Source: an uncultured Acidobacteriota bacterium (GTDB taxonomy: Bacteria; Acidobacteriota; Thermoanaerobaculia; Multivoradales; UBA5704). From it: DNA of 64,000 bases. The notes beneath the pieces are model-generated. The model was given only the letters and a program-made list of their open reading frames with translations. It searched no databases and was not told the DNA's origin. The DNA lies in NCBI GenBank assembly GCA_963770895.1, contig CAVYRF010000002.1:5536001-5600000 (forward strand), in the 5' to 3' direction. Every line of letters starts with the position of its first letter. The stretch's first letter is position 1. Shown one piece after another: positions 5,418 through 44,672 of the stretch. The position numbers were made by a program, and so were the translations under genes.

Positions 5418-5598
5418 CGCCCCAGGGGGCGTCCTGGACCGGCCGACGGCGGCCGGCAGCCAGCGGGCGGTGGAGTTGGCTCGGGCGTTGCAACGGTTCC
5501 CGGCGACCGCCGCACCTCCGGGCTCGTCTACCCAGCGGCTGATGGCCATGTGGCCAGCCGCGGGTCCGGAGGCACGCCGCGCCGGAGCCCGAGATCCT

Positions 5599-11500: not shown

Positions 11501-14471
11501 CCTGTTCCAGCGCCTGGCCAACCGCCTGCTGTACTCCGACGTGTCGCTGCGCGCCCCGGCCGAGGTGCTGCAAAAAAACGCCGCCGGGGCGCCGGCGCTC
11601 TGGGCGCTGGGCATTTCGGGCGATCTGCCGATCGTCGTCGCGCGCATCGACGAGCTCGACGACCTGGGCCTGGTGCGCCAGCTGCTCAAGGCGCAGGAGT
11701 ATTTCCGCTCGAAGCGGCTGGCGGCCGATCTGGTGATCGTCAACGAGAAGGCGCCGTCCTACTCCCAGGACCTGCAGGCGGCGCTCGAAGCGCTGCTGCG
11801 CACCGCCCAGGCGCGCCACCAGCAGAGCGACACGCAGGGGCCGCACGGCGAAACCTACCTGCTGCGCAACGAGCAGATCGACGCGACGGCGCGCGGGGCG
11901 CTGCTGGCGATGGCGCGGGCGGTGCTGGTGGCGCGGCGCGGCTCGCTCGCCGAGCAGCTGGCCCGCCGCGACCGCGGCGACGAGCGCCGGCTGGTCCAGC
12001 GTTCGCGCCGGACGACCGCGGCGCCGGCGGACGAGCCGCCGCCGCGCCCCGACCTGGAGTTCTGGAACGGCCTGGGGGGCTTCCGCGCCGACGGCCGCGA
12101 GTACGTCACCATCCTGGGCGAAGGGCAGTGGACGCCGGCGCCGTGGATCAACGTCATCGCCAATCCCGGCTTCGGCTTCCAGGTGTCCGAGTCGGGCGCC
12201 GGCTACACCTGGTCGGTCAACAGCAGCCAGAACCAGCTCACCCCCTGGTCCAACGACCCGGTGAGCGACCCGCCGGGCGAGGCGCTCTACGTGCGCGACG
12301 AGGAGAGCGGCGAGGTGTGGGGGCCGACCGTGCTGCCGATCCGCGAAGAGTCGTGGCTGTACATCGCCCGTCACGGCCAGGGCTACAGCCGCTTCGAGCA
12401 CACCTCGCACGGCATCGCCCTGGACCTGCTGCAGCTGGTGCCGCTGGCCGATCCGGTCAAGATCTCGCGGCTGACCCTGACCAATCGCGGCACGCGGCCG
12501 CGCCGGCTGTCGGTCACCGCCTACGTCGAGTGGGTGCTGGGGGTGTCGCGCAGCGCTTCGGCGCCCTCGATCGTCACCGAGATGGACGGCGCGACGGGGG
12601 CGCTTCTGGCGCGCCGCGCCTGGAACGAAGAGCTGGGGGCGGGGCGCGTGGCCTTCGTCGACCTCGCCGGCCGCCAGACCGCGTGGAGCGGCGACCGCGG
12701 CGAGTTCCTGGGCCGCAACGGCACGCTCGACCATCCGGCGGCGCTGGAGGACCGGGAGCACCGGCTGTCGGGGCGGGTGGGCGCCGGGTTGGACCCGGCC
12801 GGCGTGCTGCAGACCGTCCTTGAGCTGCGCCCCGGCGAGCAGGCGGAAGTGGTGTGCCTGCTGGGGGAGTGCGCCGGCGGCGAGGCGGCGCGGCAGCTCG
12901 TCGAGCGCTACCGCAAGGCCGACGTCGAGGAGGTCCTGGCCGAGGTCGTGCGCTATTGGGACGACGTCGCCGGCGCGCTCCAGGTGGAGACGCCCGATCG
13001 TTCGCTCGACCTGCTGCTCAACCGCTGGCTGCTCTACCAGACGCTGTCGTGCCGCGTCTGGGCACGCGCCGCGTTCTACCAGGCGGGCGGCGCCTACGGC
13101 TTCCGCGACCAGCTGCAGGACGTGATGGCGCTCACCCGCGCCCGGCGCGAGGTGGCGCGCGAGCAGATCCTGCGCGCCGCGGCGCGGCAGTTCGTGCAGG
13201 GCGACGTGCAGCACTGGTGGCACCCGCCTTCCGGCCGCGGCGTGCGCACGCACATCTCGGACGACCTGTTGTGGCTGCCCTACACCGTGCTCAACTACGT
13301 CGAGGTGACCGGCGAAAAGGAGCTGTTCGACCAGCAGGTCGCCTTCCTGGACGGGCCGCCGGTGCCGCCGGACCACGACGACGCCTACTTCCAGCCCAGC
13401 GTGACCGAGGAGCGGGCGAGCCTGTTCGAGCACTGCGCCCGCGCCCTGGACCTGCGCCTGGCGGTCGGCGCGCACGGCCTGCCGCTGATGGGTACCGGCG
13501 ACTGGAACGACGGCATGAACCGGGTCGGCCGCCAGGGCAAGGGCGAAAGCGTCTGGCTGGGCTGGTTTCTGCACACCCTGCTGTGGGAGTACGCGGCGCT
13601 GGCCGACCAACGCGGCGAATCGGCGCGGGCGGACGCCTGGCGTCAGCACCGGGCGGCGCTCAAGGAGGCGCTGGAGCGGGCCTGGGACGGCGACTGGTAC
13701 CGCCGCGGCTACTTCGACGACGGCACGCCGCTGGGGTCGGCCAGCGGCGCGGAATGCAAGATCGACTCGATCGCGCAGTCTTGGGCGGTGATCTCAGGCG
13801 CCGCCCTTCGCGACCGCGCGGTGCGCGCCATGGCGGCGGTGGAAGAGTACCTGGTGCACCGCGGCGACGGCCTGGTGCTGCTGTTCACGCCGCCCTTCGA
13901 CAGCTCCGCGCTCGATCCCGGCTACATCAAGGGCTACCTGCCGGGGGTGCGCGAAAACGGCGGCCAGTACACCCACGCCGCCATCTGGTGCGTGCTCGCC
14001 TTTGCCGCCCTGGGCGACGGCGACCGCGCCGGCGAGCTGATGTCCATCCTCAATCCCATCAACCACGCCAGCACGCGCGCCGGCATCCAGCGCTACAAGG
14101 TCGAGCCCTACGTCGCCGCCGCCGACATCTACGCCCAATCCCACCACGTCGGCCGCGGCGGCTGGACCTGGTACAGCGGCTCGGCCGGCTGGATGTACCG
14201 CGCCGGCGTCGAGTGGATCCTGGGCGTGCGCATGCGCGGCACGGTGCTGTCGATCGACCCCTCCATCCCGCGCGCCTGGCCGCGCTACCAGGTCACCTTC
14301 CGCTACCACTCGGCGACCTACCACCTGCACGTCGACAACCCGCGCGGCGCCACCCGCGGCGTCACCGCCGCGGAGATGGACGGCGCCGCCCTGCCGGTGC
14401 TGCCGCACGGCGCCGCCGACGTCGCCCTGGTCAAGGACGGCACCCACCAGATCCGCATCGTCCTGGGCTGA
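5599..14471 (+). CDS. ndvB: Cyclic beta-1,2-glucan synthase (NdvB/ChvB/Cgs; glycosyltransferase plus C-terminal GH94 phosphorylase domains), split by one frameshift near 8630
   Basis: N-part (frame of 5470..8736): EWLVDNF, GWERKRGKL, TLDADT, LLSHDLLEG, RQHRWARGDWQ. C-part (frame of 5550..14471): HRTSPTN, YDLLASEARL, SWSGSMFEYLMP, GAYGFRDQLQD, GDWNDGMN, RENGGQYTH, GRGGWTWYSGSAGW. Frames switch around a G7 run at 8628-8634. Confidence 0.9.
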
Positions 14472-16317: not shown

Positions 16318-17340
16318 TCAGGGGTGGGGGGGCCGCGGCGGCAGCGCCAGGATGGCCTTGGCCAGGGCGTCGGCGGCGCAGCGGTGGCCGTAGGGGGAGG
16401 GGTGGAAGTTGTCGGTGCTGATGGGGTCGGCGGGCGCGGCGTCGCGGCACTGGCTGAACGGCACCAGCAGGTCGGCCAGGGCGAAGCCGTTCTGCTGCGC
16501 CAGGCCGGCGACGTAGCGGTGCTGGCCGCCCCAGGGATAGCTCTTGAAGTTGCGGACGAAGCGCGGGATGACGGCGACCAGGACCTGAAAGTGGTCGTCG
16601 GCCGCCAGCTGGCGCAGGACGCCGAAATACGGCGCCACCGTGTCCGCCGACACCAGGTCCAGGTAGTGCTGCGGCTCGGCCGCCGGACGGCTTGCCGCCG
16701 CCAGCACGCGGAAGCGCACGAAGCGGTAGAGCGCGCTGTGCGCCATCCAGGCGTTCACCCGCGCGCCGCTCAGCCCCTCGCGGCGGCGGTCGGCTTCCGC
16801 CGCCAGCAGGGTTTTCAGGATGTCGCCGTCGACGTGCTCGCGCGAGCTCATGGTGTAGGCCACGATCACCAGGTCGGGGTGGTAGCGCAGCCCTTTCTCG
16901 CGCAGCGTCTCCACCTCCTGCTGGGTGTTGTAGCCGGACACCGCGAGGTTGATCACCTCGGCGCGCAGCCCGCGCTGGCCCAGGAGCTGTTCCAGGATCG
17001 GCGGGAAAATGTCCTGGTTGCGCTCGACGTGCAAGCCGGCGGCCACGCTGTCGCCGATGACGACGATGCGATAGACGCCGGCGGGCTTGGCGACGGTGTG
17101 CTCGCGGTCGCGGTAGCCTTGGCTGTTGCTCGCCCCCAGGTAGTCGTAAAAGCGGAGATCCTGGCCGTTGTAGACCAGCGGCGCCGGCTCGTAGCCGATC
17201 CTGGGGTTTTGCGACAGCCGGAAGCGGCCGCGCTGGATCGCGTACACCCTGGGCGCCACGCCCGCCAGCCGCACCATCGCTTCGGCGGCGAGCAGCGCCA
17301 GCAGCACGCTGGCCAGCATCAGGGCGAGGCGTTTCCACAT
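16318..17340 (-). CDS. SGNH/GDSL hydrolase-family protein with N-terminal membrane anchor
   Basis: Block I 'IVVIGDS', block II 'NLAVSGYNT', block V 'DNFHPSPYGH'. Confidence 0.85.
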   Translation of the reverse strand: MWKRLALMLASVLLALLAAEAMVRLAGVAPRVYAIQRGRFRLSQNPRIGYEPAPLVYNGQDLRFYDYLGASNSQGYRDREHTVAKPAGVYRIVVIGDSVAAGLHVERNQDIFPPILEQLLGQRGLRAEVINLAVSGYNTQQEVETLREKGLRYHPDLVIVAYTMSSREHVDGDILKTLLAAEADRRREGLSGARVNAWMAHSALYRFVRFRVLAAASRPAAEPQHYLDLVSADTVAPYFGVLRQLAADDHFQVLVAVIPRFVRNFKSYPWGGQHRYVAGLAQQNGFALADLLVPFSQCRDAAPADPISTDNFHPSPYGHRCAADALAKAILALPPRPPHP

Positions 17341-17479: not shown

Positions 17480-18472
17480 TCAGGGCATGCAGGCGAAGCG
17501 CGACCGCGCCAGGGCGCGCGCGAAGATCGTCTGCGCGGCGGAGTTGGGATGGGCGTCTTCGTGGCTCACCCAGTAGCGCTCGCCCGAGCCGGCGGGGAAG
17601 TCGGCGGTGGGGTCGATGACCTCGAAGCCGGCTTCGCGGCCGATCGCCTCGACGCGCGAGAACGCTTCAGCGATGCCCGCGTCGTGCGGGTCGTGCAGCT
17701 CGGGCATGGGGAACAGCGTCGCCGCCACGTGGTCGGCCTTGAGGATCGCCCCCAGCTCCCGCAGCTTGGCCTGGGTGCGCAGCCAGCCCGGCTGCCCGTC
17801 GCGGAACAGGCCGACGTAGTAGTTGTTGTAGTTGGCCAGCTTGGGGTCGGTGATCTTCTGCATCCGGGCGCCGGCCAGCGACAGCAGCGCCGAGTTCCAG
17901 AAGAAGGGGTTGGTGTTGGGCACCGCGTCCGGTTCCGCGTCGTTGAAGGAGAAGCCCAGGATCACCCAGTCGGGGTGCACGAACGGCCGGATGCGTTGCT
18001 TGTAACGCTCCACCTCCATCGAGGTGTTGCAGTTGCCGATGCCGGCGTTGTCGACGGTCACCGCGCGCCCACCCTGGGTGGGGCAGCGCTCCGACAGGAT
18101 GCGCTCCAGGTCGTCGGAGAAGGTCTCCCCCTCGGGCACCCCCCAGCCGAACGTCAGCGAGTCGCCCAGCGCCACGACCAGCCGGTTGCCCGGCCGCCGC
18201 CGCGCCTCGGTCGCCGGGTCCGGCAGCCGGAAGCCGTGCTCTTCCGTGCGCACCCTGGCGCCCATCAGGAACGCGTTGCCGTTGGGCCGCTGCTCTTCGA
18301 CCACGCCAGGATAGGGCGAGATGACCTTGATCAGCTTGGCGTAGCGCCACATTTCCACGTCGTAGACGTACAGCCAATGCTTTGAAATCAGCCGCAGCCC
18401 CACCTCCGCCACGACGAACGTGACCACCAGGGAGACGCCGAGCACGACGGCACCCAACCAACGCTTGTTCAT
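17480..18472 (-). CDS. SGNH/GDSL hydrolase-family protein with N-terminal membrane anchor
   Basis: 'VALGDSLTFGWGV', 'NAGIGNCNT', 'FSFNDA', 'DAHPN'; start taken at MNKRWLG. Confidence 0.85.
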   Translation of the reverse strand: MNKRWLGAVVLGVSLVVTFVVAEVGLRLISKHWLYVYDVEMWRYAKLIKVISPYPGVVEEQRPNGNAFLMGARVRTEEHGFRLPDPATEARRRPGNRLVVALGDSLTFGWGVPEGETFSDDLERILSERCPTQGGRAVTVDNAGIGNCNTSMEVERYKQRIRPFVHPDWVILGFSFNDAEPDAVPNTNPFFWNSALLSLAGARMQKITDPKLANYNNYYVGLFRDGQPGWLRTQAKLRELGAILKADHVAATLFPMPELHDPHDAGIAEAFSRVEAIGREAGFEVIDPTADFPAGSGERYWVSHEDAHPNSAAQTIFARALARSRFACMP

Positions 18473-18598
18473 GGACACCACCTGGATCGAGTTCCCGGCC
18501 AGCGGGAGGGTTGTACGGCGCCGGGCACACACGCCCCGCGGCAGCGGCGCCCGACTCTATCATCACCGCCGCCCGCCCGGGTTTGGCGCGGTCCGATC

Positions 18599-20098
18599 TC
18601 AGGTGGCGGTCGGGAGGGCTGGCAGAGCTCTGCGCTCCAGGAGGTTGAGGGCGCGACGCGCCTGGTCCAGGGTCGCGGCCTCGCGCTGCGCCGCCTCGCA
18701 GAAGAGGTGGAAGGCCACCAGGGCGTCGGGCTCCACGCGCTCCGCGGTCAGGATCGTGGTCATCGCCGCGGCCAAGTCGCGCACTTCGGCGGTGCGGCCC
18801 TGGTCGAGATAGATCAGCGCGAGATCCAGGGAGACGATGGAGGCGCACACCTTCTGGCCTTGGGCCAGGCACTCCGCTCGGGCCTGCTCGAAGGCGGCGC
18901 ACGCCTCGGCCTGGCGGCCACGGCCTGCCGCGACGCGGCCACTGAGCCAAACGACGCGCATCCGGTCCGCACCGTTGTCGAGATCGAGCGCCATCTGGCG
19001 CAGGTGCGGGAGCTGCGTCTCCGCCTGGGCATAGTCGCCCAGGTGACACTGGCAGGCGCAGAAGTTGAACTCCAGAGCGAAGCGCAAGCGAGGATCGTCG
19101 CAGCTCGCGATCTGTGGTCCCGCGGCGTGCAGGACGGCAATGGCGGCGGCAGCGTCTCCGGATGCCTGCAGGGTGGACGCACGCTTGAGCAGGATCCGCC
19201 CCGAGGCGTGAGGTGGTGCCAAGGCGGCGGCGCGGTCGAGGAGATCGAGCGCCGCCTGGAATTGCCCGGCGTCGCGGCGGAGGGACGCTTCGAGATCGAA
19301 CAGGCGCCATTCTGCGAGGAGGGAGTCGCTGTTCCCGGCCCGCCAGAGGTTCCAGGCGGTGGCAAACTCGGTCCCGGCCGCAACCAGGTCGCCGGCGATC
19401 CGGCGGGCGTTGCCGACGAAGGCCCGCGCATAGCCCTGGACGCGCAGGCGCCAGGGCTCGTCGCCCGGCACGAGCCGGGCCACCGCGACGGCGAGGTGGG
19501 CCAGGTCAAGGGCCGCGGCGACGCCCTTGGGAGCCTGCCGCGCGCTTTCCTCGCATAGCCTTTCGGCAAACGCCCAGGTCTGAAGCTCGGCACCTTGCTC
19601 GACCAGCCAGAGGCGCTCCTCGGCAGTGCAGGCTGCGATCCGTTCCCAGGCGCGCGCCGCGTCCTCGCGGTCCGCTGGCGACGGTTGCCTGGGCGTGAGC
19701 GCCGCCGTCTCGGTGGTCGCGATGGCCGCCTCAAGATTGCCCAGGACCGCGTGCATTGCCTCGCGGACGGCTGCCTCCAGCGCGGCGTCGTCTGCCGCAA
19801 AATCCTGGACGATCGGTTGGTGCTTACCAGGAGGCGGGCCTGCTGCAGCGGCGTGCGCCTGCTCGCGGGCGGAGCGCAGTACGGGCAGCAGGCGGCGGAC
19901 CACCCACGAGGGGCGCAGGCCGACGGCCGTGGCGAGCTGCGCCAGGGCTTCTGGTGAGATCGGTTCCCCGGACTCATAGCGGGAGATGGACGCCTGGCCC
20001 AATCCTGCCCGTTGAGCCAGGGTGCGCTGGTCCCAGCCGCGGAGGGTGCGGAGCAGCAGCACCAGCAGCGGTCCGGCCTCATCTACATAGGAAGGCAT
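18599..20098 (-). CDS. XRE/Cro-C1 HTH regulator fused to a TPR-like helical domain (paralog 1)
   Basis: HTH 'LRTLRGWDQRTLAQRAGLGQASISRYESG' followed by Ala/Leu-rich TPR-like helices; divergent from the peptide gene. Confidence 0.8.
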   Translation of the reverse strand: MPSYVDEAGPLLVLLLRTLRGWDQRTLAQRAGLGQASISRYESGEPISPEALAQLATAVGLRPSWVVRRLLPVLRSAREQAHAAAAGPPPGKHQPIVQDFAADDAALEAAVREAMHAVLGNLEAAIATTETAALTPRQPSPADREDAARAWERIAACTAEERLWLVEQGAELQTWAFAERLCEESARQAPKGVAAALDLAHLAVAVARLVPGDEPWRLRVQGYARAFVGNARRIAGDLVAAGTEFATAWNLWRAGNSDSLLAEWRLFDLEASLRRDAGQFQAALDLLDRAAALAPPHASGRILLKRASTLQASGDAAAAIAVLHAAGPQIASCDDPRLRFALEFNFCACQCHLGDYAQAETQLPHLRQMALDLDNGADRMRVVWLSGRVAAGRGRQAEACAAFEQARAECLAQGQKVCASIVSLDLALIYLDQGRTAEVRDLAAAMTTILTAERVEPDALVAFHLFCEAAQREAATLDQARRALNLLERRALPALPTAT

Positions 20099-20235
20099 GT
20101 CACCTCCGCTTTGGATGCCATATCCGTAAAAAGTGTATTTTTAACCACTGCCATTCGTCCCGGCGGATCCCGGAGGCTCACGCGCTCGGGCCAATACCGA
20201 CCGCGAGCGCAGCGCCCCCTGAAAGGACCCCAGTC
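20099..20235. promoter_or_regulatory. Divergent promoter region between HTH-TPR paralog 1 and the repeat-peptide gene
   Basis: AT-rich patch TATCCGTAAAAAGTGTATTTTTAACCAC in a very GC-rich background; RBS GAAAGGA at 20221-20227. Confidence 0.5.
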
Positions 20236-20703
20236 ATGCGCCATCCGATCTCCCGTCGCCTTGTTGTCACCGCAGCGGTGCTTGCCCTGGCCGCCTGGGG
20301 GAGCGCTCCCCGGTCGCTCCGGGCCGCCCCAGCATCCGGCTTGAGCTTGCTGGCAAGTCAGGATGCCGACTTCCTTGCCCCGTTGCGCCAGTGGCTGCGC
20401 GCGATCTGGCCCTGGAACGGCTCTGAAGCCAGGCGCGACGGCGTCCGGCACGACGCTGCTGTGGCAAAGCCACAGAACCGCTGCACCATGGACCCGGACG
20501 GCCAGTGCACCACAGACGTCAAGCCACAGAACCGCTGCGTGATCGACCCGGACGGCCAGTGCATCACAGACGTCAAGCCGCAGAACCGCTGCGGGGCCGA
20601 CCCGAACGGCGGTCAGCAGTGCACCGCCGCCGTCACGCCGCAGAACCGCTGCACCGCGGACCCGGATGGACATGGCTGCCTGAACCGAGCGGTTTCCTGG
20701 TAA
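20236..20703 (+). CDS. Small secreted polyprotein precursor (155 aa) with four tandem Cys-x-x-DP[DN]G-x(1-3)-Cys units
   Basis: ATG 20236 with strong RBS; signal-peptide-like N-terminus (MRHPISRRLVVTAAVLALAAWG), amphipathic 'FLAPLRQWLRAIWPW', then four PQNRC..DP[DN]G..C repeats. Confidence 0.8.
   Translation: MRHPISRRLVVTAAVLALAAWGSAPRSLRAAPASGLSLLASQDADFLAPLRQWLRAIWPWNGSEARRDGVRHDAAVAKPQNRCTMDPDGQCTTDVKPQNRCVIDPDGQCITDVKPQNRCGADPNGGQQCTAAVTPQNRCTADPDGHGCLNRAVSW
20467..20679 (+). repeat. In-frame tandem repeat, 4 units (periods 54, 54, 60 bp)
   Basis: CC(A/G)CAGAACCGCTGC core recurs in units starting at 20467, 20521, 20575 and 20635. Confidence 0.95.
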
Positions 20704-20811
20704 GGCGGAGCGATTGGAGAAGCCTGGTTTCCTCCGCTGCGGGGACGGAGCCCTCCCTGCCATGCCTGCCGGAGCCTCGTCCAGGGTTCCGGCGTTCCGC
20801 CAGCCGGACTT

Positions 20812-23253
20812 TCACGGTAGGCTGAAGCGGGCACGGGATGAGCGATCGAGCAGACGCAAGGCCGTGCGCGCCTGCTCAATCGTGGCGACCTCGCGATTGG
20901 CTGCTTCGCAAAACAGCTTGAGACTGGCGACGGCCTCCCGCTCGACCTTTTGGGCGGCCAAGACCTTCCATATCTTCTGTGCAAGGCGGCGCACCTCGGC
21001 CAGGCGCCCCTCCTCCAGGTAGAGAATCGCCAGATCGAGAGAGACCATTGCGCTGGCGACGCCGTTGCCGCGGTCCGCGAACTGTTCGCGCACGTGGGAG
21101 AAGGCGGCGCTAGCCTCCTGCCTGTTGCCCATGCCGGCTGCCACGCGAGCTGCCAACCAAGAGACGCGTAGCACGTCCAAGTCGTTGGCCAGCTCGAGCG
21201 TAAGGTGCCGCAACCTGGGGAGCTGAGCCGACGCATCGGCAAAGGCGCCAAGATGACAGAGAACCGCAGTCAAGGTGAATTCCAGGCCGAATTGCAAGCG
21301 CAGGTCGCCGGTCTCTATCACGAGCGGAGCCGCCTCCCGCAGCGCCGCCGCGGCGGCGGTCGCGTCACCTGCCTGCTCCAGGGTAGAGCCGCGCTTGAGC
21401 AGGATGCGACCGGCCGCAGCGCGAGGAGCCGCAGCCGCCGCACGGTCGAGGAGGTCAAGCGCGACGCCGAAGTGACCCGCGTCTCGGCGCAACGACGCCT
21501 CCAGGTCCAACAAGCGCCACTCGGGGAGAATGGCCGTCGGATCGCCCGCAGCACCGGCGTGCCAGAGCCGCCTGACCATCCGCCACTGCGCGTCCGCCTG
21601 GGGCAGGCTGCCCTGGATACGCAGGGCGTTGGCCAAAAACGCCCGGGCATAGCCTTCCAGCCGGCTGCGCCAGGCATCCGAGCCGGCGGCGAGCCGAGCC
21701 ACCGTGACGGCGAGCCCTGCCAACTCCAAGGCGGTGGTGGCGCTGCGGGGCGCGGCACGCCGGCTTTCCTCCGCGAGGCGCTCGGCGAGCGCCCAGCCCC
21801 GCAACTGCAGCAAGCCCTGGACGAGCAGCCGGCGCTGGGCAGGTTTGAATCTGGCGAGGGTTTGCCACTGCCTTCCGGCCGCGGCGCGCGCGCGGGCGAT
21901 GTGGTGCGCGGCGGAGCGCGCCTGGAGGCGGAACTGGGCAAGGGTGGCGTATTCCACGCCGAGATGGGAGGCGGTCTGCCGCGCGAGGTGATCGTCGAGC
22001 GGCGCCGCGGCCGCTGGGTGTGCGGCAGCCGCAACGGTGCCGGCGGGGGAGGGGTCGAGCGCCGCGACCGTCAGCAGGGCGACGTCCACGTCGGCCGGGG
22101 TGTATCCCATCACCTCCGACGTCAGGGTCTGGAAGCGGCGCGGGGTCAAGGGGCGATGGCCGCGCTCAAACCCCGAGATATGGCTGGTATGCACGCCGGC
22201 GGCGGCCGCCAGGTCCTGCTGCGTCCAGGCGATGCGTTCGCGCAGCCAGATGAGGGCAATGCGCGCGGTGTCCCGGGAATCGGGGAGCGCATCGCCGGCG
22301 GCGGCGTCCCCTTTCCTCTCCGGGGCAGTGCCAGGGCGCGAACTTGCACTGCCGGCCGCGGAGGGAGGCAAACCGTGCCGGTCGCCGGGCGCTGAGGCAA
22401 CCGTAGGTGCGTCCAGGCCGATGGATGCGGACAGGTCGAGCAGGCACCCTTCGGACAGGACGCCGGCCGGGTCGCCCGCGGCGCCGGCGCGCCAAAGGCT
22501 CCAGGCGGTCTGCCATTCGGCGCTGGCGGCGGCAGCGTGTCCCGCGGCCTGCAGCGCGTTGGCCAGGTAGGCCCGCGCATAGCCTTGGACACGGCTGCGC
22601 CAGGCTGCGGAGCCGGCGGCGAGCCGAGCCGCGGTGACCGCCAGCTGCGCCAGGTCGAGGGCGTCGGCGGCGCCTGCGGGCGCGGTGCGCTGGCTTTGGT
22701 GGGCAAGCAGCTCGGCCAACGCCCAGCCTTGGAACTCCTCCAACCGCTCGACGAGAAGACGGCGTTGGGCCGGACTGGCGACCTGGAGCCGACGCCAGAG
22801 ACTGGCGGCCTGGGCGCGAGCCTGCGCCAGCCGATGTTCGGCGATGCGGGGCTTCAGGCGGGGAAGCGCTAGCGCGGCGACCTCGACTGCGAGGTGCGCG
22901 ATCGCTTGGCGATGGAGCCGCGCCTCCGCGGGCGGCAGTGCGGCGGGACCGGTGGCCGCCGCATCGCCTCCCGCGGGGTCGGGACCGACGGCCGCAATGG
23001 CGAGCAGGGCCAGCTCGATTTGAGCGGGGGTGTAGGCCATCGCCGCGGCCAGCTGCAGGAACCGGCGGCGGCTCAGTGGGCGATTGCCGCGCTCGTAGTC
23101 GGTGATGAGGTTCCTGACCGTACCCGCGGCCTGGGCGAGCTGGGTCTGGCTCCAGCCGAGGCGCTCGCGCAACCAGGTCAGAGCGATGGAGTCCGGTTTG
23201 GGGATCGCCCTGGGCACCCGGTCGGGTCGCGCGGGAGGCGTCATGGGTCTCAT
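20812..23253 (-). CDS. XRE-HTH/TPR protein with an internally duplicated module (paralog 2: HTH-partial TPR-HTH-full TPR)
   Basis: Two HTHs ('WLRERLGWSQTQLAQAAG', 'WLRERIAWTQQDLAAAAG'), each followed by 'GWALAE..AGS.AWRSR..GYARA.LANAL'; start uncertain (23244/23253/23316). Confidence 0.8.
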   Translation of the reverse strand: MRPMTPPARPDRVPRAIPKPDSIALTWLRERLGWSQTQLAQAAGTVRNLITDYERGNRPLSRRRFLQLAAAMAYTPAQIELALLAIAAVGPDPAGGDAAATGPAALPPAEARLHRQAIAHLAVEVAALALPRLKPRIAEHRLAQARAQAASLWRRLQVASPAQRRLLVERLEEFQGWALAELLAHQSQRTAPAGAADALDLAQLAVTAARLAAGSAAWRSRVQGYARAYLANALQAAGHAAAASAEWQTAWSLWRAGAAGDPAGVLSEGCLLDLSASIGLDAPTVASAPGDRHGLPPSAAGSASSRPGTAPERKGDAAAGDALPDSRDTARIALIWLRERIAWTQQDLAAAAGVHTSHISGFERGHRPLTPRRFQTLTSEVMGYTPADVDVALLTVAALDPSPAGTVAAAAHPAAAAPLDDHLARQTASHLGVEYATLAQFRLQARSAAHHIARARAAAGRQWQTLARFKPAQRRLLVQGLLQLRGWALAERLAEESRRAAPRSATTALELAGLAVTVARLAAGSDAWRSRLEGYARAFLANALRIQGSLPQADAQWRMVRRLWHAGAAGDPTAILPEWRLLDLEASLRRDAGHFGVALDLLDRAAAAAPRAAAGRILLKRGSTLEQAGDATAAAAALREAAPLVIETGDLRLQFGLEFTLTAVLCHLGAFADASAQLPRLRHLTLELANDLDVLRVSWLAARVAAGMGNRQEASAAFSHVREQFADRGNGVASAMVSLDLAILYLEEGRLAEVRRLAQKIWKVLAAQKVEREAVASLKLFCEAANREVATIEQARTALRLLDRSSRARFSLP

Positions 23254-23599
23254 GGCTTGCTGAGCGAGACGACCGGGCTTTCCGTCCGATGCAAAGTATT
23301 GCCTCTCCGTAACCAATCGCTTTCAGGAAACAAATCGTCTTCGCTGCCGCGCAGATCATTCTTACGCGAACGCTCCGCTTGCGCAAGGGCGACCTTGCCC
23401 ACGAAATCAGGTGGTTTCCTACTGGATAGAAATCGTCTCTTTGCGTACCTGTCGATCGCCCCGAACCCGATCGCTTCGTCGCGGCGGGGCCGAGACGGTT
23501 ACCAACTTGCCTGGCGCTGGATACCGGGAGCTTCTTTTGTCAATTGCGCGCACGCCATTGCCAGATCGGGCAATCTCGCCAGCGAACGAGGAGGCAAAG

Positions 23600-25789
23600 A
23601 TGAGCGCCCCTGATCCCCGAAGTCCCATCGCCGGCCATCGCAGGCACGAGGACGCCGCAGCCTGCGCAGGTGAGGTGCCGCGGTATCCCTTCCTTGCCGC
23701 GGGTGCCGACGCCTTTCCTGCGAGCGGCGCCGCGCGCATGCCCGGCAAGGGCCGACCTCTGGGAATGGGCACCGGCATGGGACCTCATCGCAACCGGTCC
23801 GGTGCTGCCCCGGCCGGAGAGGTGCAGGGGCTGAGACGCCGCCATCGTCCAGCGTTGGGTCTTGCGCTTTCGACCTTGCGGTCCATCATGGGATGGTCTC
23901 AAACCGATCTTTCCCGGGTCAGCGGCGTCGCGATCAGCCAGATATCGCAATACGAATCTGGCAAGATACGTTTGACTCGGGCTCGCTTTCATCACCTCGC
24001 CGCGGTCATGGGCGCCGGCGAGGGGCTGGCCGATTGCGCGGTAACGACCTGTGCGCTGTTGTCTGCCGTAGCCACACCGGCGGACCCGGTTCCGCCAGGC
24101 GGTCTCACCTGGGACGAGCGGCGGCAGGTCAACTCGTTTGCACTAAGAATGTTGCCTGCGCTGACTGAGCTCGTTCGGGCGCAGGCCACTGCAACGATCA
24201 TCATGCAGCGCGTCGAAGAGGCGCATCAGGAAGCAGACGCACATTGGCAGGTGCTGGTGACGCTCAGCCACAGGGAGCGGCTGCAACGATTGGAAGCCGG
24301 TCTGCATCTACAAACCTGGGCGATGTGCCTGCGCCTGGGCGACGCGAGCGTTGCCGCTGCTCACAATGTCACGGAATCCATGCAGCTTGCCGAGCTTGCC
24401 GTGCGTGCGGCCCAACTGGCGCAGGGTGACGCCGGCGGGCTGCTGCGCTTGCAGGGCTACGCGCGCGCATTCCTTGCAAATGCTCATCGGTTGAGGGGAG
24501 ATCTCACGGCGGCAGATGCCGAGTTCGCTGCGGCAACGCGACAGTGGGATGAAGGTAAGCAAGTCGCGGAATTCCCGCTGCTGGAATGGCGGTTCCTCGA
24601 CTTGGAATCATCGCTCCGCCTGGCGCAAAAATTCTGGCCCGCAACCGTCGGCCTGCTCGACCGGGCCATCGCCCTTGCTCCCGCAGGGGAAACGGGCCGG
24701 CTGCTGATCAAGAAGGCGACGGCTCTACGGCTCGCCGGCCAGGTCGACGATGCGCTCGCTGCGCTGGACGCGGCGGCGCCCCTGGTCACGTCGCTGCCGG
24801 AAGCGCAGTGGATGGTGCAGTATCACCAGATTGCGTGTTTGTGCCAGACAGGGCGCTATCGACAGGCCGGTCATTTCCTGCAGAGCGCAGGCGATGCGCT
24901 TGACGGTGAGTCCACTTTGGAAATCGTCCGGCGATTGTGGCTCACAGCCCGCGTGACCGCAGGTCAGGGCGATCGGCGACAAGCGATCGCCGATTTGCAA
25001 TGGGTGCGTAGGGAACTCATGCCGTTCGCCACTTGCTACGAGTCCGCCCTGGTGTCGATCGAGCTGGCGGTTCTTTACTTCGACAGTCGGGAGTGGAGCT
25101 CGAAGATTCGTGGCTTGGTGCAAACCACCTTGGAAATAGTCAACGCACGATGGGGTTCGCGAGGTCTGACGGCCAGCCTTGGCGAGGCATGTCAGTCGCC
25201 TGAGAAGCTACGTCAGCTTCACGAAGACCTTGAGCTTTTGAGGGTCGAGAACTGGGTCTTCGAGCCCCTGACGACGGACGGCAGCGAGCGCACCGCGTAC
25301 AGCCCCCTTTCGAAACAGACCGATACCGTCTCGCTTGGCGACGAAACGAGCCTCCTGGTGCGCCTGTTGCGCGCAGTCCCTGGGTTTAGCCAGGACGCGA
25401 TGGGCGCTAGAGCGTCGATCGATCGCACTACGATCAGCCGCTACGAGAAAGGCGACATGATCCCCTCGCGGGCGCATCTCGCGCGCCTGGGCGATGCTGC
25501 CGGTATTTCACTGCCGCTTTTGGAGGGCGTGTTGCAGCCGCTGGTCCGCCTTGTGTGTGTCAAGAGGGCCTGTTCGCACAGAGCCTGGGTGCCGGCGCAC
25601 CAAGCTGATGAGGTGGCGACCGCGTTCGATCGGCAAATGGTGGCCACCCTGCGCGCAGGCGTCGCCACGTTTGCAGCAGCTCTCCGGTGCCGTCCTGCTG
25701 TGGCTGCTCAGCCTGGCCGGCCAGCGGATTTCCCGCCGCGCGATGCGCAGCAGGCGCCGGCGAAAAACGCGGGCGAGATGGCCAGATGA
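23600..25789 (+). CDS. XRE-HTH/TPR protein with a second, C-terminal HTH (paralog 3)
   Basis: ATG 23600 after GAGGAGG; HTH 'LRSIMGWSQTDLSRVSGVAISQISQYESGK', shared TPR module 'QGYARAFLANAHR..EWRFLDLESSLR', second HTH 'GFSQDAMGARASIDRTTISRYEKG'. Confidence 0.75.
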   Translation: MSAPDPRSPIAGHRRHEDAAACAGEVPRYPFLAAGADAFPASGAARMPGKGRPLGMGTGMGPHRNRSGAAPAGEVQGLRRRHRPALGLALSTLRSIMGWSQTDLSRVSGVAISQISQYESGKIRLTRARFHHLAAVMGAGEGLADCAVTTCALLSAVATPADPVPPGGLTWDERRQVNSFALRMLPALTELVRAQATATIIMQRVEEAHQEADAHWQVLVTLSHRERLQRLEAGLHLQTWAMCLRLGDASVAAAHNVTESMQLAELAVRAAQLAQGDAGGLLRLQGYARAFLANAHRLRGDLTAADAEFAAATRQWDEGKQVAEFPLLEWRFLDLESSLRLAQKFWPATVGLLDRAIALAPAGETGRLLIKKATALRLAGQVDDALAALDAAAPLVTSLPEAQWMVQYHQIACLCQTGRYRQAGHFLQSAGDALDGESTLEIVRRLWLTARVTAGQGDRRQAIADLQWVRRELMPFATCYESALVSIELAVLYFDSREWSSKIRGLVQTTLEIVNARWGSRGLTASLGEACQSPEKLRQLHEDLELLRVENWVFEPLTTDGSERTAYSPLSKQTDTVSLGDETSLLVRLLRAVPGFSQDAMGARASIDRTTISRYEKGDMIPSRAHLARLGDAAGISLPLLEGVLQPLVRLVCVKRACSHRAWVPAHQADEVATAFDRQMVATLRAGVATFAAALRCRPAVAAQPGRPADFPPRDAQQAPAKNAGEMAR

Positions 25790-25959
25790 CACGATCTGGG
25801 TCTGCGGTGGCCGCGCCGGGTGGGGCGCGAATGCCGCTCGCATCCAGCTCCCATACAGCATAAACTTAGAGCGAAAGCCAGAACGTAAGGTGCAAGTCGG
25901 AGCAGGCCCTTTTCGGCCTGGCTTGCGGCGCTTGTGCTTTGGGAGCCCGTGCAGACGGC

Positions 25960-28900
25960 GTGAAACGTTCGCTCGCTCTCTTCGGCCGGCCGACCTGCCG
26001 CGCTGTGGCGCTCCTTGTCCACGCGGCCGGGCTTGCCGTCACCATGTCCGGATGCGGTGACGGTTCCGATCCGGCACGCGCAGTGGAATCGATCCGTACC
26101 AACTGGACAAAGGCGTTTGCCGTCGCGCGGCCGCTGGCAGGCCGGCTGGCGGGCGTCGGATATGCACCTGCGGCGCCGGTGCCAGCGGCAGGGCCTGCGG
26201 CGCCAGTGGCACCGGCGCCGCTTGCAGCAGCGACGCTACCCGCGGCGTCGCCGAGCGAAGCCACGGTCGCCGCGGAGCGGCGCACCTTTGCCGGTCTCAG
26301 CCGGTCCGCCGTGCGGACGGCACGCACACGCTCGGCCTGGGATCTGTATGCCCTGGGGCTCGCCGCGCTGGGCGTCGGCCGGGTCGATGCGGCGGTCGAT
26401 CACCTTGCCGCGGCGGCGGCGCGAATGCCCGCCAAGCCGGAACCGTGGAGCGACCTGGCGGCCGCCTACCTGGAGCGAGGCGATCGCCGGCACCTTTCGC
26501 ACGACGACCTGCTGGCTCTGGACGCGGCGGACCGGGCGCTGCAGCTTGCGCCTGGCCTGGCGCCCGCGGCCTTCAACCGGGCTGTCGCCTTGGAGCGGCT
26601 TTTCCTCCCGGCCGCCGCCGCCTGGCAAAGGTTCCTGGCTAGCGATCGCAGCTCAGGCCGGGGATGGCCAGCCGAGGCGCGCCGCCACCTGGCCGCGGCA
26701 GGCTCGCCTGAACCGATCGATGCCTGGACGATCCAGCGCCGGCGCCTGGAAGACCTGGCGGCTGCCGGCAAACCGGAGGCCCTGGCATCGTGGGCTCGAC
26801 GGGTGCCGCAGGCGGTTCGCGAGCTGGCCGAAGACGTGGAACTGCCGGCCTGGGGCGGCGCCGTGCTCGCCGGCCGCGGGGCGGACGCCGGGCGCGCGCT
26901 GGCGATCGCCAGAGCGTTGGGCGGGGCGCTCGCCGCCGGCCGTGGCGGCACCGCGGTCGCGGATTGCGTGCGCGCGATCGACCTGGCAGGCGCCGGCCCT
27001 GGGGCCAGCGCCGGGTACGACACGTCCGCCGCGGCGCCGGTGAGTCCTGGGGGCAGGAGTGCGCTGCACGACCTGGCCGCCGCCCACGCCGTCTACGGTC
27101 AGGCGCTGGCGCTGTACGCCAGCGAGCAGTTCGCCGGCGCCCAGGTGGTTTTTGACCGCGCCGCCGCGCTGTTCGTCGGCGCCGGCAGCCCGTTTGCCGG
27201 GTGGGCGCGCTTTCAGCTGGCACGCTGTGCGTTTCAGCATCTGGATTACGACCGCGCCGTGCGCCTGCTGGAGCCGCTCACCGGCGCCGGAGCCGCCGGG
27301 CGCGATGCTGCGCTGGCGGGGCGCGCGTGGGTGCTCGACGGCCTGATCGCCGCGATCGTGGGGCGGCCTTTTGACGCGCTTGCGGCTTGGCAACAGGGCC
27401 GCGAGGTGTTCACCCGGCTGGGCGAGCGGGGGAGCTTGATCTCCCTGGACGCGGGCGCTGCCGAGGTGCTGGCCTCGCTCGGACGCAGAGCCGAAAGCTG
27501 GACCTTCCTGCTGCGCGCCCTGAGCGAAACCAGCGCCGTGGACCCGGTTGCGGACCTCGGACACGCGCTCGAGCGGGCCGCCGTGGCGGCGCAGGAAGAC
27601 GGCGCCTTTGCGGCGGCGATCGATTTTCGCGACGAGCAGCTGCGCCGCGCGCTGGCGTCGGGCTCCGCCCGGCGCACCGCGGGAGCGCTGTTCGACCGCG
27701 CCATGGCCTACAGCGGCGCCGGCAACCGCCCGCTCGCGCTGCACGACATCGAGGCAGCCAGGCGGATGGCCGCCGCCATGCCGGACAGCGGCCTGCGCAC
27801 CAGCGCGACGGCCGACATCCTGTACACCGAAGGCCGCATCCGGCGCCGCTTCGACGCCGCGTCGGCGATCCCGCCCCTGGCGGAGGCGGCGCGGATCTTC
27901 GCCGCGACCGGCTATCGCTATCCCCTGGTGACCGCCCACCTGGAGCTGGGGCTCGCCACGCTCGCGCTGCGCCAGGACGATCGCGCCGAAAGCGAGCTGC
28001 AAGCCGCCGCCGCGGCGGTCGAACACCAACGCGGCGCGATCCCGGACAGCTCCACCCGCAGCACCTACCTGGGACAGATGCGCGAGGTCTACGAAGCCAT
28101 CGTCGAGCTGGAGGCCGGCCGGCGCCGGCGGCCCGAGCCGGCACTGGCGGCGAGCGAGCTGTACCGCGGCCGCACGCTCCTCGACCTGTTGCAGGGCGGC
28201 CGCTCGCGGAGGGAGCGAGGTCTGACGCTCGGTCCCTCCGTGCAGCCCGTTCCGGCGGCAGGCAACGGCGCGTTCGCCGCCTCCCAGCCGCTGGCGCCGC
28301 GCGACATCGCGGCGGCGCTGCCCGCGGGTACCGCGGGTGTCGAGTTCGCCTTCGCCCACGGTCGGCTGTTCACCTGGGTCGTCACGCCAGGGGGGTTGCG
28401 CCTCTTCGCGTCGGATCTGGGCGCTCATGCCGAGCGCCGGATCGGGGTCCTGGCACAGCGCCTGCGCGGCGAGCTACGGACGGGCCGGGTGGGTAGAGGC
28501 TCGGCCGCCGTGCTGCTCGACGACCTGCTGCTGCAACCGATCGAGCCCGCGCTGCCCGCCGGAGCACGGCTGGTGCTGGCTCCCGACGGCCCGCTGAGCG
28601 GGCTGCCGTTTGCCGCCTTGCGCGATCGTCAGGGCCGCTACCTGATCGCGCGGCACGCGCTGCTGCTGGCACCCAGCCTTTCGTACTTCGTTGCCAGCCG
28701 GCGCTCGCACCGGTCCGTTGCGGATCGGTCTGCCGGCGGCGGTTCCACCAGCGGGAGGGCGCCGCTGCGCGTCCTTGCCGTCGGCGACCCCGCCTTCGAT
28801 CCAGCCGTCTTTGGCGATCTGCCCCGCCTGCCCGGCGCAGCGGCGGAAGCGGCGGCCGTCGCCAGGCTGCTGCCGGGCTCGGTCGCCCTGGTCGGAGCGC

Positions 28901-29412
28901 AGGCGTCCGCGGCCAACCTGCTGGCCGCCGTGGACCGGTTCCCCATCCTGCACTTCGCCGGCCATGCGATCGCCAACCCGGCGGAGCCGCTGCTGTCGTA
29001 CCTGCTGCTCGCCTCCGACGCGCCGGGCGGCGCGAGCGTGCTCTATGCGCGCGACGTGCTGGATTACCGCTTCGACCGCACGCGCCTGGCCCTGCTCGCG
29101 GCCTGCCGTACGGCGGACGACCAGAGCACCTCCGGACAGGGCGTGATGGGGCTGGCCAGCGTGTTTCTGGCCGCCGGGGTGCCCGCCGTGATCGCCACCC
29201 TGTGGGACGTCGAAGACCCGTCGTCCGGCGCTCTGCTCGACCGTTTCTATCGTCGCCTGGCGCGCGGCGTCGACGCCGCGGACGCCCTGCGCGCGGCGCA
29301 GCTGGACCTGCTGGCCAGCTCCGATCCAGCCTTACGCCAACCCGCCACCTGGGCCGGCTTCGAAATTATCGGCGATCCGCCGGCCTTTCTGCCCCAACCC
29401 GTACCTTTTTGA
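25960..29412 (+). CDS. TPR + CHAT (caspase/HetF-like, clan CD) protease, possibly a lipoprotein
   Basis: TPRs (WSDLAAAYLERG, AAFNRAVALERL); CHAT motifs LAPDGPLSGLPFAAL, catalytic His in LHFAGHA, catalytic Cys in LAACRT, 'VIATLWDVED', 'PATWAGF'; lipobox-like AVTMSG-C. Confidence 0.88.
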   Translation: MKRSLALFGRPTCRAVALLVHAAGLAVTMSGCGDGSDPARAVESIRTNWTKAFAVARPLAGRLAGVGYAPAAPVPAAGPAAPVAPAPLAAATLPAASPSEATVAAERRTFAGLSRSAVRTARTRSAWDLYALGLAALGVGRVDAAVDHLAAAAARMPAKPEPWSDLAAAYLERGDRRHLSHDDLLALDAADRALQLAPGLAPAAFNRAVALERLFLPAAAAWQRFLASDRSSGRGWPAEARRHLAAAGSPEPIDAWTIQRRRLEDLAAAGKPEALASWARRVPQAVRELAEDVELPAWGGAVLAGRGADAGRALAIARALGGALAAGRGGTAVADCVRAIDLAGAGPGASAGYDTSAAAPVSPGGRSALHDLAAAHAVYGQALALYASEQFAGAQVVFDRAAALFVGAGSPFAGWARFQLARCAFQHLDYDRAVRLLEPLTGAGAAGRDAALAGRAWVLDGLIAAIVGRPFDALAAWQQGREVFTRLGERGSLISLDAGAAEVLASLGRRAESWTFLLRALSETSAVDPVADLGHALERAAVAAQEDGAFAAAIDFRDEQLRRALASGSARRTAGALFDRAMAYSGAGNRPLALHDIEAARRMAAAMPDSGLRTSATADILYTEGRIRRRFDAASAIPPLAEAARIFAATGYRYPLVTAHLELGLATLALRQDDRAESELQAAAAAVEHQRGAIPDSSTRSTYLGQMREVYEAIVELEAGRRRRPEPALAASELYRGRTLLDLLQGGRSRRERGLTLGPSVQPVPAAGNGAFAASQPLAPRDIAAALPAGTAGVEFAFAHGRLFTWVVTPGGLRLFASDLGAHAERRIGVLAQRLRGELRTGRVGRGSAAVLLDDLLLQPIEPALPAGARLVLAPDGPLSGLPFAALRDRQGRYLIARHALLLAPSLSYFVASRRSHRSVADRSAGGGSTSGRAPLRVLAVGDPAFDPAVFGDLPRLPGAAAEAAAVARLLPGSVALVGAQASAANLLAAVDRFPILHFAGHAIANPAEPLLSYLLLASDAPGGASVLYARDVLDYRFDRTRLALLAACRTADDQSTSGQGVMGLASVFLAAGVPAVIATLWDVEDPSSGALLDRFYRRLARGVDAADALRAAQLDLLASSDPALRQPATWAGFEIIGDPPAFLPQPVPF

Positions 29413-44554: not shown

Positions 44555-44672
44555 CGGTCGCCTCTCCTTGCGCTCGCTTCCCGCCGGACCATTACGGTGT
44601 GCACCACGCGCGGGTTGCATCTATAGTTTGTGCCTTGCCGTGGCGACATTGAGGATTTGCCCTGGGGGAGCG

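Follow-up and report, generated by a model that had tools for sequence, protein, structure and literature searches.

Small DPxG-loop proteins with predicted signal peptides, their pairing with HTH-TPR regulators in Thermoanaerobaculia, and a possible role in peptide signalling

Here, we describe a small gene and its regulatory neighbours in a 64,000-nucleotide stretch of DNA (the window) from an uncultured acidobacterium of the class Thermoanaerobaculia, the genome of which comprises 8.16 Mb at 70.7% G+C in 3 contigs. The gene, P0001 (20236..20703, + strand), encodes a protein of 155 aa made up of a signal peptide, a spacer, a Trp-rich helix and four DPxG loops that are each closed by a pair of cysteines, and it is flanked by genes for large regulators that combine helix-turn-helix (HTH) domains with tetratricopeptide repeats (TPR). 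We use this cassette, its paralogs in the same genome and its counterparts in related genomes to ask what such a pair might do, and conclude that there is an even chance of its being, by analogy with the RRNPP systems, a peptide/TPR-receptor signalling module of the quorum or kin type in Acidobacteriota (Thermoanaerobaculia).

The N-terminus of P0001 reads MRHPISRRLVV... and is a predicted signal peptide (aa 1-30, 20236..20325, +), in which MRHPISRR is followed by a hydrophobic core and by SLRA and AP, between which the cleavage site probably lies. The sequence SRRLVV resembles a twin-arginine translocation (Tat) motif, and TatC is encoded in the genome. Beyond the spacer comes the amphipathic Trp-rich helix DFLAPLRQWLRAIWPW (aa 45-60, 20368..20415, +), which is kept in family alignments, and then the four loops, read from the translation as CTMDPDGQC (loop 1, aa 83-91, 20482..20508), CVIDPDGQC (loop 2, aa 101-109, 20536..20562), CGADPNGGQQC (loop 3, aa 119-129, 20590..20622) and CTADPDGHGC (loop 4, aa 139-148, 20650..20679), all on the + strand. 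Together they follow the pattern C-x2-DP[DN]G-x(1-3)-C and each stands directly behind PQNR, or more fully behind KPQNR in three cases and TPQNR in one; linker and loop are encoded by a 54-nt tandem repeat (20467..20652, +), which Tandem Repeats Finder scores at 206 with 3.3 copies and 84% matches. An earlier note, made from the letters of the window, had already picked out the four cores behind PQNR and the W-rich helix that precedes them, and both are confirmed, the first by translation and the second by the model described below.

The gene sits inside a longer TTG-started frame of 315 aa (19756..20703) in the six-frame list of open reading frames (ORFs), as the earlier note had also pointed out. 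The ATG at 20236 is nonetheless the likely start codon, because all paralogs and close homologs align from that methionine and because a Shine-Dalgarno-like box, GAAAGGAC (20221..20228, +), lies 7 nt before it and is invariant in the alignment of four paralogous loci. The concern that automated annotation might miss the gene proved unfounded, since the exact 155-aa product is already present in a public protein collection, and gene callers thus do find it. The product has nonetheless escaped classification: a scan of P0001 against Pfam and NCBIfam returned no family at E <= 0.01, and the PADLOC defence models gave 0 matches.

The AlphaFold 2 (AF2) model of P0001, built on an alignment of 60 sequences, has a mean predicted local distance difference test score (pLDDT) of 62 and contains no globular fold. 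It consists of a first helix in the signal peptide (aa 4-22), a second that coincides with the Trp-rich segment (aa 47-57), and a hairpin at loop 2, the sole stretch so modelled. As the model yields only these two helices and one hairpin, P0001 looks like a precursor or a tethered-loop protein rather than a folded domain. The idea of a small secreted multi-repeat precursor thus stands as far as its precursor-like build is concerned, its secretion being a prediction from the hydrophobic N-terminus.

Comparison with homologs changes the view of which parts of the protein matter. Three close paralogs in the same genome (65, 51 and 47% identity) carry PQNG-C, PQN[S/A]-C and PQAT-C in place of PQNR-C, so that the residue before Cys1 appears from these sequences to be uniform inside one gene and different from one gene to the next. 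When 1.84 billion representative proteins were searched with a profile, 260 representatives of the small protein were recovered at E <= 0.001, corresponding to at least 260 clusters at 50% identity; among the matches listed (the best 150 of 260), nearly all are 77-175 aa long. The names of ten members were checked, five being 'hypothetical protein' and five having no name, and the ESM Atlas holds only Acidobacteriota 'hypothetical protein' clusters, whose scores of 0.84-0.86 fall under the evidence level. In a tally of 153 proteins (P0001-P0006 plus P0007-P0153), with loops defined as C-x2-DP...C, there are 424 loops, 314 of them nine residues long; 5 proteins have none, 8 have one, 35 two, 78 three, 23 four and 4 five. 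The consensus unit is [D/K]-[N/A/E]-G-C-[G/S]-[I/L]-D-P-[N/D/S]-G-x-C. Outside the loops, a hydrophobic N-terminal stretch of at least 10 residues is found in 140 of 149 members and a Trp within 30 aa upstream of loop 1 in 138 of 149, with the Tat-like pattern [ST]RRx## in 10 of 149.

The same tally decides the fate of the processing scheme in the earlier note, in which an invariant PQNR/C junction would be cut after Arg to release small peptides with an N-terminal Cys. The junction is not kept among homologs: PQNR occurs at 4 of 424 junctions, all four from P0001 itself, and Cys1 is preceded by R or K in 8 of 424 loops and by Gly in 393, such that cleavage after Arg cannot be the maturation rule of the family. 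The cyanobactin-like logic of constant linkers and variable cores is in fact reversed, as across the family alignment it is the loops that are conserved and the linkers that vary. Two relatives from metagenomes, P0029, of 212 aa, and P0060, of 783 aa with 9 matched stretches, carry many repeats of G-x-x-hydrophobic-DP[DN]G that are mostly Cys-free. Since the unit is repeated there mostly without cysteines, the DPxG turn, and not the disulfide, is on sequence grounds the older element.

The small protein has a narrow distribution. At E <= 0.01 it is matched in 23 of the genomes of 41 relatives, namely in 21 of 24 from the window's own family versus 1 of 16 from other families of the order, and one relative genome has as many as 20 matches. 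An even sample of the phylum, for which the best 14 candidates per genome were scored, gave matches at E <= 1e-5 in 2 of 301 genomes, the window's own and one other of the same family. A search of genome contigs with P0001 alone produced 230 pattern matches, of which 0 were confirmed. The regulator family is more widespread, being present at E <= 1e-40 in 38 of the 41 relatives, each genome of the window's family carrying 6 to at least 38 copies and those from the rest of the order 0-17; by the source names of its homologs, the group belongs to Thermoanaerobaculia, Acidobacteriota.

Three such regulators belong to the cassette. Regulator A (18599..20098, - strand, 499 aa), divergent from the peptide gene, consists of an XRE-type HTH, a helical linker and a TPR superhelix; Pfam gives HTH_3 at 39.6 bits, HTH_31 at 34.6 bits and a weak TPR_19, and by eye its sequence contains neither a signal peptide nor a membrane segment. 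Regulator B (20812..23316, -, 834 aa) is convergent with the peptide gene, an orientation conserved in relatives, and comprises two tandem HTH-TPR modules (HTH_3 at 62.6 bits over 2 stretches; matches to the profile hidden Markov model A2 at residues 37-301 and 350-830). Regulator C (23411..25789, +, 792 aa) has two HTH domains and a TPR-type region, and its paralogs, 73-80% identical, adjoin two other peptide loci of the genome. Internal duplication is evident in both larger proteins, B being a half module joined to a full HTH-TPR module and C a full module joined to a second HTH region, and doubled forms resembling B and C recur at paralogous loci. Against PADLOC, the regulators match only via their HTH stretch.

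Within this genome, the association between peptide and regulator is exclusive. The order A-peptide-B is found in all four copies of the cassette, that is, in the window and at three paralogous loci, and the regulator family has 26 strong representatives in the genome (E < 1e-100), which are clustered. When all six frames of the 8.16 Mb were searched for ORFs with repeated C-x2-DP-x-G-x(0-4)-C loops, 5 places were found, and each of the 5 ORFs has a strong HTH-TPR gene no more than 1 kb away, with 0 such ORFs elsewhere in the genome; the loop pattern is therefore not a product of chance. With the profile A3, 11 distinct genes are matched, all of which map by their coordinates to regulator clusters.

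The DNA between the genes is also conserved. Regulator A and the peptide gene are separated by a divergent intergenic region that contains an AT-rich element, TAAAAAGTGTATTTTTAACC (20127..20146), with the inverted repeat TAAAAA-n5-TTTTTA. All four paralogous cassettes have this element without change, and a search allowing up to 3 mismatches finds only these four sites in the genome, making it a candidate operator or promoter element on sequence evidence. The 5' leader of the peptide gene that follows (20147..20235, GGCCAAT..CCGnCCGCGAGCGGCnGCGCC) is likewise strongly conserved among the four cassettes (the window and loci L002-L004) and could act as a leader in the RNA or offer a second site for protein binding. 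Scans of 20050..20900 for sigma-70 promoters and intrinsic terminators returned 0 and 0. At the other end of the gene, the 108-bp spacer towards regulator B has a stable predicted RNA fold (-61.9 kcal/mol over 20695..20815, z = -3.3, 0 of 200 shuffles as stable), in which the scan found no canonical intrinsic terminator; it may be a bidirectional terminator-like structure.

The pairing extends across relatives. In 19 related genomes, a regulator lies within 1.5 kb of the peptide gene at 18 of 19 loci, with none at the remaining one; 14 are convergent with it and 4 co-directional and downstream, and 7 loci have an extra copy upstream and divergent. Maps of 20 kb drawn for 18 further stretches show peptide and regulator units that alternate, sometimes with two or three in succession. 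When all ORFs of at least 120 aa around 19 loci of 10 genomes were clustered, and those found in more than three genomes were counted as conserved, only regulators, their antisense shadow ORFs and peptides qualified; no protease, maturase or transporter was conserved at these loci. The pairing of peptide and regulator genes is thus exclusive and ancient, and the suggestion of a pheromone precursor, which the earlier note had offered beside that of a modified peptide, draws strong support from this neighbourhood.

A further line of evidence comes from sister families, sampled in five genomes from four other families of the order. Their TPR homologs cover only profile positions ~115-489, and a Pfam HTH was found in 0 of 10; they carry instead an N-terminal HxxxCxxC head, with no transmembrane segment seen by eye in the N-terminal sequences. 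A zf-HC2 scan of 5 such N-terminal segments gave 22.3 bits (against a cut-off of 22.2), 16.1 and 13.1 bits, and two without a match. At 16 of 30 sister-family loci, a co-directional small ORF matches the peptide profile, 15 of them upstream and 1 downstream of the TPR gene. The products have a signal peptide and a Trp-rich helix, 15 of 16 have DPxG, and in 9 of 16 the last DPxG ends no more than 4 residues from the C-terminus, mostly without a Cys pair. At one locus, a gene for an extracytoplasmic function (ECF) sigma factor stands between the small ORF and the TPR gene (Sigma70_r2 at 49.1 bits, r4_2 at 32.3 bits), and at three others a short ORF in that place looks by eye like sigma region 2 and has no Pfam sigma match. 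One further locus (L077, G034 C2:657000-669000) has four tandem zinc-finger-class TPR genes downstream of a single small DPxG protein gene, and regulator arrays thus form in a sister family too.

The TPR domain thus retains the same kind of predicted secreted partner while its DNA-facing end changes. HTH and zinc-finger heads combined with one kind of partner match what would be predicted of a ligand-sensor pair. Both TPR classes share four polar residues, N230, R233, R381 and W384 as numbered in regulator A, with a conservation of 0.90-1.0.

The AF2 model of regulator A is all-helical, with a pLDDT of 88.5, and consists of the HTH, a long helix and some eight helix pairs (residues ~140-490). 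A Foldseek search of the PDB returned generic TPR proteins, LGN and TTC7B included, the lowest root-mean-square deviation (rmsd) being that of peptide-bound Rap (4gyo, TM-target 0.67, rmsd 5.1 over 325 columns; also 8rsu at 0.67 and 4i9c at 0.63). To model the complex, the TPR region of regulator A (residues 140-499) and the pro-region of P0001 (31-155) were combined, alongside 3 controls. The pair scored 0.52 (runs of 0.58, 0.52 and 0.46) against 0.32 for the best control, with an agreement between runs of at least 33% of contacts and a partner pLDDT of at least 34. Of 80 solved complexes, 58 reach the mark used, as do 2 of 110 mismatched pairs; passes at a score of 0.60 or less come from only 7 of the 80 solved complexes and from both mismatches that passed. 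The prediction thus lends weak support to binding between the TPR domain and the precursor.

How might such a pair work? In the reading that we prefer, the precursor would be exported via its signal peptide, and in the periplasm each pair of cysteines would close its DPxG turn into a small disulfide loop; the linkers might then be cut by general proteases or, alternatively, the protein might act whole. The TPR superhelix of the neighbouring regulator would sense the DPxG unit, the sole element common to all relatives, and sensing would alter how that regulator binds the TAAAAA-n5-TTTTTA element in the intergenic region, and hence its action on the promoter of its own cassette. A bolder form of the proposal, in which many private DPxG-turn channels operate beyond Bacillota with a TPR sensor wired either to an HTH or to an anti-sigma-like/ECF output, the turn being disulfide-locked and present two to five times per precursor in one family, is put forward more tentatively, as we rate its chances somewhat below even. 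In favour of the signalling reading are the exclusive pairing in the genome together with pairing across genera, the swap of output domain with retention of the same kind of partner, the polar residues conserved in both TPR classes and, from the models, a receptor TPR fold near that of peptide-bound Rap, the weak complex score and a precursor predicted to have no globular fold.

Several points weigh against signalling. The regulators have no sequence homology to RRNPP receptors: Pfam and NCBIfam see only generic HTH and TPR, and a profile search of the PDB gives HTH and generic TPR proteins, with no Rap, PlcR, NprR, Rgg, PrgX or AimR. TPR superhelices are themselves generic, LGN and TTC7B equalling Rap in Foldseek score, and a pass in complex prediction such as the one obtained here is, according to the prediction tool itself, wrong more often than right unless the pairing was already likely. 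As the host is diderm, a secreted signal has two passages of the outer membrane and one of the inner membrane to make, and the cytoplasm would reduce a disulfide loop. The 19 loci of 10 genomes have no linked gene for a dedicated exporter, protease or importer; peptide uptake genes do occur in the genome (two SBP_bac_5 and one PTR2) and are permissive only. Each cassette has three regulators, two of which are double modules, and so departs from the simple RRNPP pattern, and regulators far outnumber detected peptides, for example 26 strong ones against about 11 in this genome. Finally, adjacency fits a regulator and its target gene equally well.

This last point is the core of the chief rival, in which the regulators control the adjacent gene on another cue and the loop protein is a regulated secreted effector without feedback. 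We regard this as possible, although on balance doubtful, and the role that the protein would then have outside the cytoplasm, for example that of a surface or periplasmic protein, of a binder of metals or ions, of an adhesive or of an antimicrobial peptide, is put forward with the same reserve. The shared intergenic element suits a regulator/target pair as well as it suits feedback, the lack of linked import or processing genes at the 19 loci and the excess of regulators over peptides speak for it, and the Trp-rich amphipathic helix could bind a membrane. What a regulated effector leaves unexplained is why the same kind of partner persists when an HTH head is exchanged for a zinc-finger, anti-sigma-like one, and why peptide and regulator genes multiply together, with as many as 20 peptide matches in a genome; moreover, no bacteriocin-type immunity or export genes are conserved, and the loop protein has neither a Pfam domain nor a predicted fold.

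A secretion-coupled partner switch is an improbable alternative. Here, the TPR domain would bind the unexported precursor through its Trp helix or N-region, and export would free or activate the regulator, a logic exemplified by FlgM/sigma-28 and ExsE. Such a switch needs no re-import in a diderm, it fits a Trp helix that is conserved as widely as DPxG and present in the partners of the zinc-finger class too, and it is compatible with the weak complex score, which came from the whole pro-region with the helix included. General Sec/Tat export is, however, not normally regulated, and the C-terminal DPxG of sister families is more typical of a released ligand.

A multi-core precursor of the kind known for ribosomally synthesised and post-translationally modified peptides (RiPPs), from which a CHAT-type protease would release four cyclic peptides in cyanobactin-like fashion by cutting after PQNR, is very improbable. 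It took its appeal from the four repeats with identical PQNR junctions in P0001 and from a gene 5.2 kb downstream for a TPR + CHAT protein of 1157 aa (25939..29412, +; CHAT at 220.8 bits, with a weak PADLOC match to BovA at 17.2 bits). The junction counts given above, with conserved loops joined by variable linkers, speak against it, as do the three paralogs of the same genome, in which G, S/A or T takes the place of the Arg. The CHAT protease, which the earlier note had proposed as the processing partner, has no counterpart within ~10 kb of four other loci of the genome and, with no maturase or protease conserved at the 19 loci, is ruled out in that role by synteny. An unprocessed structural protein, with its DPDG/DPNG turns as calcium sites, has scarcely any claim: DxDG-like turns do recur, even in Cys-free form in P0029 and through the nine matched stretches of P0060, but Ca-binding repeats of the EF-hand-like or RTX kind are ruled out by the absence of any Pfam or NCBIfam match at E <= 0.01, just one acidic residue per unit is invariant, AF2 gives no fold, and the link to the regulators goes unexplained. 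An anti-phage defence system was also considered and is ruled out, PADLOC having returned nothing relevant for peptide or regulators.

The remaining genes of the window are of more varied kinds. Two adjacent GDSL/SGNH lipase-like genes lie just upstream of regulator A (16318..17340 and 17480..18532, both -), and the locus comparison found no counterpart of them at paralogous loci. A giant ORF of 2973 aa (5550..14471, +) has GH94 supersandwich (534.8 bits) and catalytic (400.3 bits) domains together with a glucoamylase-like domain, an architecture that we take to be that of a cyclic beta-1,2-glucan synthase or phosphorylase-type protein. A DUF1501 protein (33350..34810, +, 116.8 bits) and a MacB/FtsX-type ABC permease (42083..44620, -; MacB_PCD 119.7 bits, FtsX 96.2 bits) appear unrelated to the cassette. 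Outside the window, near the second cassette of the genome, a long ORF with YD/RHS-like repeats (G000 C2:3847112..3852094, part of locus L029) overlaps or abuts an HTH-TPR gene.

Should the signalling reading be true, peptide quorum or kin signalling would be opened up in a major, poorly cultured soil phylum, and logic of the RRNPP type would extend beyond Bacillota and to cyclic, disulfide-constrained signals. The motif G-C-x-hydrophobic-D-P-x-G-x-C would provide a compact and testable ligand, and cassettes numbering a dozen or more per genome would provide many private signalling channels. If the function is not signalling, the small secreted proteins form an unannotated family all the same, one that accounts for much of the expansion of HTH-TPR regulators in these genomes.

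How does the pair compare with known systems? One likeness is to Bowman-Birk inhibitors and SFTI-1, which present a nine-residue disulfide loop with the motif P1-Ser-x-Pro-Pro. A nine-residue Cys-Cys loop that would likewise close a Pro-containing tight turn is the commonest form here (314 of 424); the residue pattern differs, being D-P-x-G, and the analogy is one of loop length and turn. With cyanobactin precursors, P0001 shares several similar short units in one precursor, with repeated linkers between them. It differs in that the units are conserved and the linkers vary, and in that no PatA/PatG-like protease, macrocyclase or maturase is conserved nearby.

The sister-family proteins also resemble the partners of ECF sigma factors, namely anti-sigma factors of the zf-HC2 (ZAS) type, since the TPR protein there has an HxxxCxxC head and in one case follows an ECF sigma gene. 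The window regulators differ in carrying HTH heads, and the zf-HC2 cut-off is reached by just 1 of 5 segments even in the sister families. A soluble TPR anti-sigma factor with a co-transcribed secreted peptide was not found in the available portions of the ECF classification (PMC7826278).

A further comparison is with RRNPP(A), the group of Rap-Phr, NprR-NprX, PlcR-PapR, Rgg-SHP, PrgX and AimR-AimP. Common to both is a small gene for a propeptide with a signal peptide beside the gene for a cytoplasmic TPR-type receptor, and in most RRNPP subfamilies the receptor has an N-terminal XRE-type HTH, as does regulator A. The trait of an exported propeptide is shared as well, export being predicted here from the N-terminal hydrophobic stretch only. 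RRNPP pheromones usually lie at the C-terminus of the propeptide, a position to which the often C-terminal DPxG of the sister families may be likened. In both systems, cassettes multiply and diverge as pairs, and tandem duplication of pheromone units in propeptides has been documented for Rap-Phr (PMC11343458).

There are also differences. RRNPPA is described, in two further accounts, as a system of Firmicutes/Bacillota, mobile elements included (PMC9765709, PMC10075063), whereas the host here is a diderm acidobacterium and the receptors are not recognised by sequence. RRNPP ligands are short, linear and variable peptides, while the putative ligand here would be a conserved DPxG turn closed by cysteines, and each peptide has two or three regulators, some of them doubled, in a mostly convergent orientation. 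In the literature found, neither the family nor its pairing is described, although the supplementary tables on RRNPP_detector (PMC10075063) and on ECF groups (PMC7826278) may include related candidates from beyond Bacillota or soluble anti-sigma groups of the TPR type. RRNPP-like logic is already known, and what would be new in the present system is the phylum, the receptor clade, the constrained ligand motif and the use of two output domains.

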